In this document: positions 41,801 to 43,586 of the stretch, piece by piece | How positions within the stretch are numbered: position 1 is the first letter of the stretch | Layout of the letters: every line of letters starts with the position of its first letter | Source: Limnothrix sp. BL-A-16 | Lineage (GTDB): Bacteria > Cyanobacteriota > Cyanobacteriia > CACIAM-69d | DNA: 64,000 nucleotides | Direction of reading: 5' to 3' | NCBI GenBank assembly: GCA_041937175.2 | Contig: CP166615.1 | Location: 2,112,001-2,176,000, forward strand | Position numbers and translations under genes: made by a program | The notes under the pieces: model-generated | What the model saw: the letters and a program-made list of their open reading frames with translations, nothing else | What the model was told of the DNA's origin: nothing | The model's database searches: none

Positions 41801-42203
41801 GGTTGTCTCAATGCAGCATCAAGCGGCATCTGCATTAAACCAAACTCAAACTTAAGCTCAAACTTCAAACCAGAAGCAAACTTCAACTCAAACCTCAACA
41901 AGGCCTGTAAAGCCCCTTGGCCCCATCCTCTCGCCAAAGCGGGATCAGGGTTGGGGAAACCCAACGAAAGATGCTCAAAATCCTAGGGGGTATCGTCATT
42001 TTTCGAGGTGATACTGAAACGGTTGATCTTCTGTGCCCTAATCTTCGTAACAAGGGGCTTAAGCCCCTTGTCCCCCATGATCCGTTAACGACAGATCTAG
42101 GGTTTCGTGCTCAACGATGACAGGTCTTAAGCCCCTTGTCCCCCACGATCCGTTAACGACAGATCTAAGGTTTCGTGCTCAACGATGACAGGCCCTTGTA
42201 TGT

Positions 42204-42425
42204 GGAAGGCGGTGGAGCAGGAAGGTTAAGCTCAGGCATAATCGACCCTCTCCCATCCGGTAGAGACTCTGGACAGGCCCTGAAGCTCCGAAGCTTGAGG
42301 CTTAGATTGAAGAGCCGACCGGAACCCGCCTTCCCGGACACTGCCAGTAGACTGAACAGTATTCAGAGTGACCGCTTGAGCGCTGTCACCTCGGATCAAG
42401 CAAGGGTAGCACTGGGTCAGTGACC
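42204..42425 (+). ncRNA. bridge RNA of the IS110 element
   Basis: LTG 42273-81, RTG 42299-305, LDG 42356-63 and RDG 42401-04 match the reconstructed target and donor; closing and internal stems are present. Confidence 0.88.
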
Positions 42426-42451
42426 GTCCCTCTTTCTTGTCCACCCCAACC

Positions 42452-43465
42452 ATGACTAATCCAATCTATATTCCCCTGGGCATCGACATCAGCAAACACC
42501 ACTTCGATGTTGCCCTCTGCAAAGCACCCTCGACCGCTCGCAGCAAAAGTGCCTTTCACACCAGCCAGTTTGCCAACAACGAAACCGGATTTCACGAATT
42601 ACTCGCTTGGCTCGAACAACACCAAGTCCACCACATTCATGCTTGCCTAGAAGCAACTAACATTTATGGTCATGAGTTGGCAGCCTTCCTGTATCAACGG
42701 GAGCAGCGGGTCAGCATTGTGAATCCTTCCCAAGTCAAGGGCTATGGGCAAAGTCGCCTGAAGCGCACCAAGAGTGACCAGGCGGATGCGGGAGTGATTG
42801 CCCAATTCTGTCGTGACCTGACTCCTCCCCTGTGGGAACCGTTACCGGAAGCCCTAGAGCAATTGCAGCAGCTTTCCCGCCGCGTGGAAGCGCTGATCTC
42901 GATGCGGACTGAGGAGAAAAATCGGTTGGACTCTTGCCGTAATCCCCACTTACAGACTGATCTACAAGCCCATATTGCCTATCTGTCGGAGCGGATTGAT
43001 GACCTAAAAAAGCTTATGCGCGAGCATATTCGCGCCCATGAAGCCCTTGCTCATCAAAGCCAATTGCTCTGCTCGATTGTCGGCATTGCGGAAACCACCG
43101 CCACCAACTTGTTGGCGGAGATTGGTGTGATTCAGCGCTTTGCTTCCGCTAGACAATTTGCGGCTTTTGCAGGTCTCACTCCCCGAGAATTTATCTCGGG
43201 GACATCTGTTCGCGGCAAGACTCGATTGTGCAAAATTGGTAATGGTCGGCTGCGAAAAGCCTTCTATTTTCCAGCCTTGTCAGCCTGTCGCTATTGTCCT
43301 GAGATTGCAGCATTTCGCAACCGATTAGTCGCGGCGGGCAAAACACCCATGCAAGCCATTGGCGCTGTGATGCATAAGCTGGCCAGGATTGTTTTTGGGG
43401 TGCTGCGGCATGACAGACCGTTTGACCCCAGCCAACTGGCAGTCACCACAGAGCCTTGCTCTTAG
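42452..43465 (+). CDS. IS110 DEDD recombinase/transposase
   Basis: [18 protein letters not shown] (D-E-D-D), GLTP...[17 protein letters not shown]. Confidence 0.96.
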
Positions 43466-43586
43466 GCTTTACATTTTGTCACTTTCAGACCCTTGCGCCT
43501 CCTCGGCGAACACAGTATCTAAGCCCCTTGTCCCCCACGATCCGTTAACGGCAGATCTAGGGTTTTGGGCTAAGCGATGACAAGCC

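Follow-up and report, generated by a model that had tools for sequence, protein, structure and literature searches.

An IS621-like insertion sequence with a predicted bridge RNA in the cyanobacterium Limnothrix sp. BL-A-16

The RNA of the insertion sequence IS621 of Escherichia coli, a member of the IS110 family, was shown to guide recombination (PMC11208160, PMC11208158). Its handshake guides are defined by their complementarity to positions 6-7 of the non-cognate DNA, and pairing of these guides with the cognate DNA blocks strand exchange (PMC11208158). IS621 inserts into a sequence that resembles repetitive extragenic palindromes (REP), its wild-type target being printed as ATCAGGC-CT-AC (PMC11208160). 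A second bridge recombinase with target-binding loop, donor-binding loop and handshake guides, IS622 or ISCro4 of Citrobacter rodentium, has 88% recombinase identity to IS621 (10.1101/2025.05.14.653916), and thousands of IS621-type orthologues have been catalogued and 72 screened (PMC11208160; 10.1101/2025.05.14.653916). An element of this type is described here in the cyanobacterium Limnothrix sp. BL-A-16, at 42197-43520 (+) of a 64,000-nt window (assembly GCA_041937175.2, contig CP166615.1, positions 2,112,001 to 2,176,000 of the forward strand), to which all positions refer unless another locus is named. The analysis supports with high confidence that this stretch is an intact and recently active IS621-type IS110 insertion sequence whose left end codes for a bridge RNA. 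It followed an earlier interpretation made from the letters of the window (the sequence-only reading), which had proposed the element, its guides and its handshake dinucleotides.

Boundaries, recombinase and insertion sites

With its 1,324 bp the element is a precise insertion, and the core dinucleotide CT stands at each junction (42195-96; 43519-20). The left flank closes with ACAGGCC-CT at 42196, the element starts with TGTATG at 42197 and ends with ACAGTATCT at 43520 (ACAGTAT-CT), and AAGCC comes next (43521-25). These boundaries are exact, because an uninterrupted paralogous repeat in the same genome lacks exactly that stretch; 95/120 of its flanking positions match, and it reads ACAGGCC-CT-AAGCC, the target that the sequence-only reading had obtained by removing 42197-43520. 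Two DNA-metagenome contigs likewise join 42194 to 43519 and skip the 1,324 bp; they probably derive from empty paralogues and are no proof of excision. Compared by eye, with no tool search for terminal inverted repeats, neither end of the element (TGTATGTGG, ACAGTATCT) is an inverted copy of the other.

The recombinase carries both domains of the family, PF01548 (101.8 bits, E 4e-29, cut-off 29) and PF02371 (85.9 bits, E 2.5e-24, cut-off 21.3). Its best solved relative is IS621 (8wt6, E 6.5e-68), with which it shares 132/321 aligned residues. Residues D11, E60, D102, D105 and S241 of IS621 align with D12, E67, D109, D112 and S249, so that all five catalytic residues are kept, and the same columns are obtained in the 8wt6 alignment. 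On these domains and residues, together with the CT cores, the lengths of the ends and the site-specific insertion, the element is classified from its sequence as an IS621-like member of the IS110 family.

Four copies of the element occur in the genome and are 100% identical across all 1,324 bp; identity at four different sites implies recent movement. In 4/4 copies the left flank is GACAGGCCCT, followed by A(A/G)G, and the right flanks are CT plus AAGCC, AGGCC, AAGTC and AGGAT. The natural target of the copy in the window, ACAGGCC-CT-AAGCC, corresponds to the sequence ACAGGCCCTAAGCC. The 9-mer ACAGGCCCT occurs 163 times in the genome, compared with about 45 occurrences expected from composition, and most occurrences lie in a repeat that reads gacgACAGGCCCTaagcccctt. 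A 68-bp tandem repeat (2.0 copies, 97% matches; 42058-42192 + 43521-43590) carries the window copy in its third unit and is a member of a REP-like family whose palindromic core is aaggggcttaagcccctt. Judged from these sites, the target of the element is one end of a REP-like repeat with many copies in the host genome. In a repeat copy at G000:C1 ~1639690 (+), ...GACGACAGGCCCT is succeeded by TGTAT, after which unrelated, AT-rich DNA begins. This resembles a left junction that retains only 5 nt of the element, and may be the scar of a partial or half-site recombination or a chance match.

A metagenome copy (L028) with 96% DNA identity and 97% protein identity is inserted at the same 14-mer. Its left end differs at positions 42218, 42219 and 42300, the last of which (G42300A) lies in the right target guide. 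Third codon positions differ at 34/338, in comparison with 3/255 in the left end (Fisher p 3e-6), and amino acids at 9/338. This comparison of two sequences suggests that the left end is under purifying selection and much more conserved than synonymous sites. A third variant of the element with the same change at 42300 is present in a contig from an RNA library, and variants were found in several environmental data sets, at other copies of the repeat.

The predicted bridge RNA and its relatives

The predicted RNA comprises a target loop with a left and a right target guide (LTG, RTG) and a donor loop with a left and a right donor guide (LDG, RDG), each right guide being followed by a handshake guide (Table 1). 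On reading 42000-43800, all strings and coordinates that had been claimed for the element, guides, hairpins and dinucleotides were confirmed, and the proposed IS621-type architecture is borne out by the protein domains, by a covariance model, by the guides and by the handshake columns. Two details were amended. The stem 42339-48/42411-22 does close the donor loop, as had been proposed, while the target loop is closed by 42257-70/42311-22 (helix 1 of the covariance model) instead of 42204-12/42326-34. The RDG had been placed correctly as CAAG at 42401-04, a reading that was incomplete: alignment with IS621 gives a longer, discontinuous guide (42395-96 + 42400-04) in which G42400 is in a G-T wobble and corresponds to G161 of IS621, the base that forms a wobble with donor T12. 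The LDG letters at 42356-63 read ACAGTATT. Against their cognate DNA the handshake guides form no pairs (A:C, U:C, G:T, G:A).

Table 1. Features of the element and of its predicted bridge RNA (positions in the window)
Feature	Position	Strand	Basis or remark
Left target, 7 nt ACAGGCC + core CT (ACAGGCCCT)	42188..42196	+	GACAGGCCCT (10 nt) precedes each of the 4 genomic copies
Insertion sequence, 1,324 bp	42197..43520	+	4 identical copies; empty paralogue; metagenome copy 96% identical
Non-coding left end, 255 nt, encoding predicted bridge RNA	42197..42451	+	3/255 differences from the 96% copy
Possible outer stem, 5' strand GGAAGGCGG	42204..42212	+	Perfect 9-bp complement with 42326-42334; shuffle test unsupportive
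Match to covariance model R1	42253..42432	+	63.8 bits, E 3.7e-17, model positions 1-174 of 174; sole match in 64 kb
Target-loop basal stem, 5' strand	42257..42270	+	Pairs with 42311-42322; constrained fold; helix 1, 10/11 pairs compensatory
Left target guide ACAGGCCCU	42273..42281	+	9/9 identical to left flank of 4 copies; column of IS621 nt 50-58
Target-loop hairpin AAGCU-CCGA-AGCUU	42283..42296	+	Helix 2, 5/5 pairs compensatory, 85% of cells paired
Right target guide GGCUUAG	42299..42305	+	Reverse complement of CT+AAGCC; other copies (CTAGGCC, CTAAGTC, CTAGGAT) mostly G-U-compatible
Handshake guide AU, target loop	42306..42307	+	Complements donor positions 7, 6 (T, A); letters and column as IS621 A81/U82
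Target-loop basal stem, 3' strand	42311..42322	+	Constrained fold, covariance model
Possible outer stem, 3' strand CCGCCUUCC, in pyrimidine-rich linker between loops	42326..42334	+	Complement of 42204-42212
Donor-loop basal stem, 5' strand	42339..42348	+	Pairs with 42411-42422; helix 3, 8/9 pairs compensatory
Left donor guide ACAGUAUUC	42356..42364	+	7/7 identical to right-end ACAGTAT; position 8 U vs donor C, a U-G wobble with bottom strand
Donor-loop hairpin GAGUGAC...GUCACCUC	42366..42392	+	Helix 4, 10/11 pairs compensatory; GTGAC..GTCAC at 42368-89
Right donor guide, discontinuous: AU (42395-96), 3-nt bulge, GCAAG (42400-04)	42395..42404	+	Aligned to IS621 AUUUGCAAG (nt 157-165)
Handshake guide GG, donor loop	42405..42406	+	Complements target positions 7, 6 (C, C); column of IS621 G166/U167
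Donor-loop basal stem, 3' strand	42411..42422	+	Fold and covariance model
Recombinase gene, 337 aa, DEDD RuvC-like domain + Tnp domain with serine	42452..43465	+	PF01548, PF02371, IS621 8wt6
Right end, 55 nt	43466..43520	+	7 differences from the 96% copy, all outside 43494-99 and 43508-20
Candidate -35 TTGCGC, completed only in circular form	43494..43499	+	17-nt spacer, then TATCTT (43516-20 + 42197); 7/12 consensus matches
Left donor, ACAGTAT + core CT	43512..43520	+	Identical to IS621 right end
Right target AAGCC	43521..43525	+	Read in sequence, insertion sites and empty paralogue

The layout was evaluated with a covariance model (R1) built from IS621 and 13 relatives, from which the window and its 96% twin were left out and whose structure was derived from per-sequence folds with the guides held unpaired. 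The sequence-only reading had suggested scoring the left end in this way, and the single match in the window covers the model at full length. In the whole genome R1 gives 4 matches, one per copy of the element, and its alignment puts all four guides and both handshake pairs of the window in homologous columns. Across 74 sources 33 matches were obtained. Over the 30 distinct rows of these aligned matches, 77.2% of the stem cells are paired (54.9% in shuffles) and compensatory changes occur in 33/36 stem pairs; the covariation score is 0.522, compared with 0.197 in shuffles (0/500 reach 0.522) and 0.08-0.18 with the partners slid. The alignment was fitted to R1, which favors the structure, a bias that the slid-partner control addresses. 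On raw MAFFT alignments RNAalifold recovered the target-loop hairpin alone, because the stems vary in length, and an unconstrained fold of the left end, uninformative for large internal loops, was no better than shuffles (z -1.37) and paired the guides internally. Among the metagenome relatives with about 40% identity (L033-L036, L039-L044, L018) none reached R1 at E 0.001; these have another conserved donor, ACAGTCTCT, and other loop sequences.

That the matches in the left end are a coincidence around an ordinary transposase gene was given practically no credence. Taken alone, CAAG is a 4-mer expected by chance and uninformative, and the possible outer stem is no better than shuffles (duplex energy z -1.85 in the window and -1.7 to +0.8 in relatives); comparable long-range pairings were drawn by eye in L005, L006, L007 and L061. 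The longer guides behave otherwise: when the left end was shuffled 20,000 times with its dinucleotides preserved, the LTG 9-mer came up in 65 shuffles, the RTG 7-mer in 283, the LDG 7-mer in 80 and the three in combination in none. In the same check the RDG 5-mer with A at the position of G42400 was absent, as expected for a wobble. The shuffle test, the match to R1, with the same layout recurring in the other sources, and the covariation of the stems refute a coincidental origin.

The same left end could instead hold sites that the protein recognizes as DNA, or code for an RNA whose role is confined to regulating transposase expression, without acting as a guide. The small RNAs of ISPpu9, for example, were reportedly once proposed to regulate transposase expression. 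Such a role is compatible with the fact that the pairing evidence consists of complementarity in sequence, yet the guide segments change with the flanks of each element while the surrounding stems change by compensatory substitutions. The correspondence was measured in 12 distinct elements with placeable ends, by comparing the left flank of each with its own left end. The cognate flank matches at 9/9 positions in 6 elements, at 8/9 in 3 and at ≤6/9 in 3; of the 132 non-cognate pairs, 2 attain 8 and not one attains 9. On the right side 5/11 cognate flanks match at 7/7, compared with 0/110 non-cognate pairs, and elements with shorter matches have GUAG facing CTAC at the homologous RTG position, as in IS621. 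Left out of these counts were L063-L066; L037, L038 and others cut by contig ends; the distant relatives L033-L036, L039-L044 and L018; and copies of the same element (L001, L002, L004, L028, L006, L009-L012). The four loci L063-L066, from one cyanobacterial genus (4 genomes), have the usual right end, no TGTAT left end and the LTG CCCGCCCCT, which does not agree with their flanks. The Oscillatoriales element is immediately preceded, at L006:911-960, by a second partial copy (~32 nt) of the start of its own left end and then a perfect LTG target; a nested or tandem insertion, or misassembly at the contig end, may account for this.

Tolerance of G-U pairs at occupied sites also points to RNA pairing. 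Copies at sites unlike LTG and RTG, which the sequence-only reading had named as evidence that would count against it, were searched for, and 4/4 copies lie at matching sites. The RTG GGCUUAG matches the first copy perfectly over 7 nt, as had been claimed; the second and third copies carry one G-U/G-T-compatible change each, so that these three pair at all 7 positions (Watson-Crick or G-U), and the right flank of the fourth (CTAGGAT) gives two G-U/G-T pairs and one mismatch. Similarly, copies of an Abditibacterium element lie at CTACAAAAC, CTACGGGGT and CTACAGGGC and its guide is GUUUUGUAG; all differences are G-U compatible, which argues for RNA pairing (such tolerance was recorded at L010 and L012). 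With the homologous IS621 RNA known to guide recombination (PMC11208160, PMC11208158), a DNA-site or purely regulatory function appears very unlikely, and a guide RNA is preferred.

The handshake dinucleotides follow the same logic in relatives. The AU of the target loop is invariant in 16/16 aligned sequences, and donor positions 6-7 are likewise invariant. The first donor-loop handshake base, examined by eye, pairs (Watson-Crick or G-T) with the LTG-derived target position 7 in 10/11 distinct elements other than that of the window; these include L067, the only switch from G to C (target G, guide C). In L007 guide and flank disagree and the pairing is not assignable. The second donor-loop handshake base of the window also pairs (G with C6), a pair for which IS621 needed the engineered change U167G (PMC11208158).

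Circle-junction promoter, proposed mechanism and activity

A standard promoter scan gave no promoter-like site in the integrated context. When right and left ends were joined computationally and scanned for consensus matches, a TTG of a -35 box was found in the right end, 17-18 nt from a -10 box at the junction, in 15/15 elements including IS621 (TTGCAG, 17 nt, TATTAT). The -10 starts 5 nt before the junction in 6/15 elements, the clade of the window, and 2 nt after it in 9/15; the junction outscores the integrated context in 13/14 elements, the exception being IS621.

By analogy with IS621 (PMC11208160, PMC11208158), the element would excise as a circle in which the right end joins the left end and creates a promoter, with the -35 TTGCGC in the right end and the -10 TATCTT across the junction. 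From this promoter a bridge RNA would be transcribed, about 220 nt long and with its start near 42204. In the target loop, ACAGGCC-CT would pair through its bottom strand with LTG, and CT-AAGCC through its top strand with RTG; in the donor loop, LDG and RDG would pair with the circle junction ACAGTAT-CT-TGTAT. Recombinase tetramers would then cut the top strands after CT by means of Ser249, and after strand exchange AU and GG would pair with positions 6-7 of the non-cognate DNA; a Holliday junction would form and be resolved. On the same analogy, the recombinase may be programmable.

Several observations weigh against an active bridge-RNA element. The exact 14-mer target is unoccupied at 31 genomic sites, REP-like sequences that are available to the element, compared with 4 occupied ones, which points to low or restrained activity. 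Judged by its consensus matches, the junction promoter is weak, under the 9/12 threshold of the standard scan, and no circle junction is listed among the assembled contigs of the sequencing runs. Three RNA libraries from different studies yielded contigs over the left end (42193-42404, 42212-42631 and 42193-43402); assembled contigs reveal no strand and no ends and do not tell a transcript from contaminating DNA, and parts of the element left uncovered in single runs carry no meaning. One of these contigs begins at 42212 straight after 23 letters which we take to be an Illumina adapter, a hint at a fragment end and not a mapped start. In addition, Rfam 15, whose content of bridge-RNA families was not established, gave 0 matches over 41900-43700 at E up to 1; L063-L066 match R1 with 48-80 bits, but their flanks are unlike their own guides; and L007, L062 and L032 (3/12 relatives) are the elements whose left flanks match the guide at ≤6/9.

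The empty targets, the weak promoter and the missing circle junction would all fit an element that is correctly built and now inactive, its guides merely inherited. This alternative is considered improbable: it is opposed by the four identical copies at four sites, by an intact reading frame with all catalytic residues, by a left end far more conserved than synonymous sites and by the variants at other repeat copies in environmental data sets. Taken together, the sequence evidence indicates that the element is genuine, intact and probably active.

Two features adjoin the end of the recombinase gene and the element. At 43450-43470, inside the right end, the stop codon of the recombinase is overlapped by a hairpin that resembles a terminator and has a T-rich tail; 1 site compares with 1.7 expected in shuffles, which is no more than chance. 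The insertion lies 66 bp past the stop codon of a 673-aa open frame at 43587-45608 (-), presumably, from its translation judged by eye, resembling a class A penicillin-binding protein.

Comparison with IS621 and other bridge systems

For comparison, IS621 was taken from E. coli strain 1943 (locus L085; 1,279 bp), with nt 1 fixed at L085:676 by the published numbering of A81/U82 and G166/U167 (PMC11208158), a choice that reproduces the LTG at 50-58, G161-G165 and both handshake pairs. This copy sits at ATCAGGC-CT|...|AC, ends with ACAGTATCT and starts with TGTAT. The sequence-only reading had given the donor 14-mer as equal to that of IS621, and rightly so: it is found in strain 1943 and within the IS621 donor oligo in PMC13396178, the donor sequence not being printed in the main texts of PMC11208160 or PMC11208158. 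The whole element gave no blastn match in E. coli genomes; IS621 DNA was reached by protein search and by a fragment in strains UTI89 and 536. In the latter two (L083, L084) only a 134-aa C-terminal IS621-related frame, annotated as IS110 family transposase, is present, beside a full-length match to the bridge-RNA model with 89.7 bits.

The element and IS621 agree in the order of left-end RNA, recombinase and short right end, in the CT core at both junctions, in the donor 14-mer (right end ACAGTATCT, left end TGTAT), in the catalytic residues and in having a repeated extragenic sequence as target. Guides and handshake guides fall in the same columns of R1, AU corresponding to A81/U82, and the G-T wobble at the G161 position is shared. 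In contrast, the proteins are 41% identical, and IS621 is shorter (1,279 bp, with a left end of 191 nt, vs 1,324 bp and 255 nt). The targets differ (ATCAGGC-CT-AC in IS621, ACAGGCC-CT-AAGCC here), and the LTG of IS621 has one mismatch to its target whereas that of the element is fully matched. As the sequence-only reading had noticed, the target loop is naturally different, with an RTG match of 7/7 at the window copy instead of 4 nt in IS621. The donor-loop handshake is GU in IS621 and GG here, which pairs with both target positions. The RDG bulge has 2 nt in IS621 and 3 nt in the element, whose RDG spans 10 nt, one more than the 9 nt of IS621 over 7 DNA nt. Finally, the -10 TATTAT of IS621 lies inside the left end, whereas the candidate -10 of the element, TATCT|T, is 7 nt further upstream and spans the core, and the 5' region of IS621 is shorter than that of the element, which has a possible outer stem.

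ISCro4 was compared by protein, not DNA, and is the second-best solved relative of the recombinase (PDB 9t56, E 9e-66); being close to IS621, it is therefore equally distant from the element. The nearest relatives occur in cyanobacterial metagenome-assembled genomes of Geitlerinema (L005), Oscillatoriales (L006) and Spirulina (L007), with 58-64% protein identity. Together with L028 they share the donor, the upstream-shifted -10 and the RNA layout including the longer RDG bulge; L005, L006 and L007 have their own LTG, RTG and targets, and L028 differs in the RTG by G42300A. ISPpu9 and ISPpu10 of Pseudomonas putida, known here by description, are likewise IS110 elements inserting into REP or repeated extragenic sequences; the Pseudomonas loci compared have about 34% protein identity, and one alone reached R1, weakly (L020, 21 bits).

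A tentative suggestion, which we hold to be rather doubtful, is that the element, L005, L006, L007, L061 and L062 form a distinct sub-type of bridge system, with the -10 on the core (TATCT|T), an RNA about 40 nt longer at its 5' side and the 5' end paired with the linker (42204-12/42326-34). A three-way junction would result, with a 5' hairpin and the target loop lying inside the outer stem. The natural 7-nt RTG, the mismatch-free LTG and the double handshake of the window copy resemble features that were engineered into IS621 for efficiency, and for this reason its recombinase could be naturally more efficient or specific than IS621.

No description of the element was found in the literature on IS621 bridge RNAs or cyanobacterial IS110 elements, a search that left the supplementary orthologue tables of PMC11208160 outside. 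Reading the raw sequence recovered a full guide code, which passed independent tests on four insertion sites, with a model free of the window and by covariation in relatives. The known working of bridge systems is unchanged by this element. What it adds is a natural orthologue, 41% identical to IS621, whose donor is the same and whose target is not, whose target loop is fully matched over 9+7 nt and whose handshake is double, and that is a reasonable candidate for the orthologue screens now running (10.1101/2025.05.14.653916).

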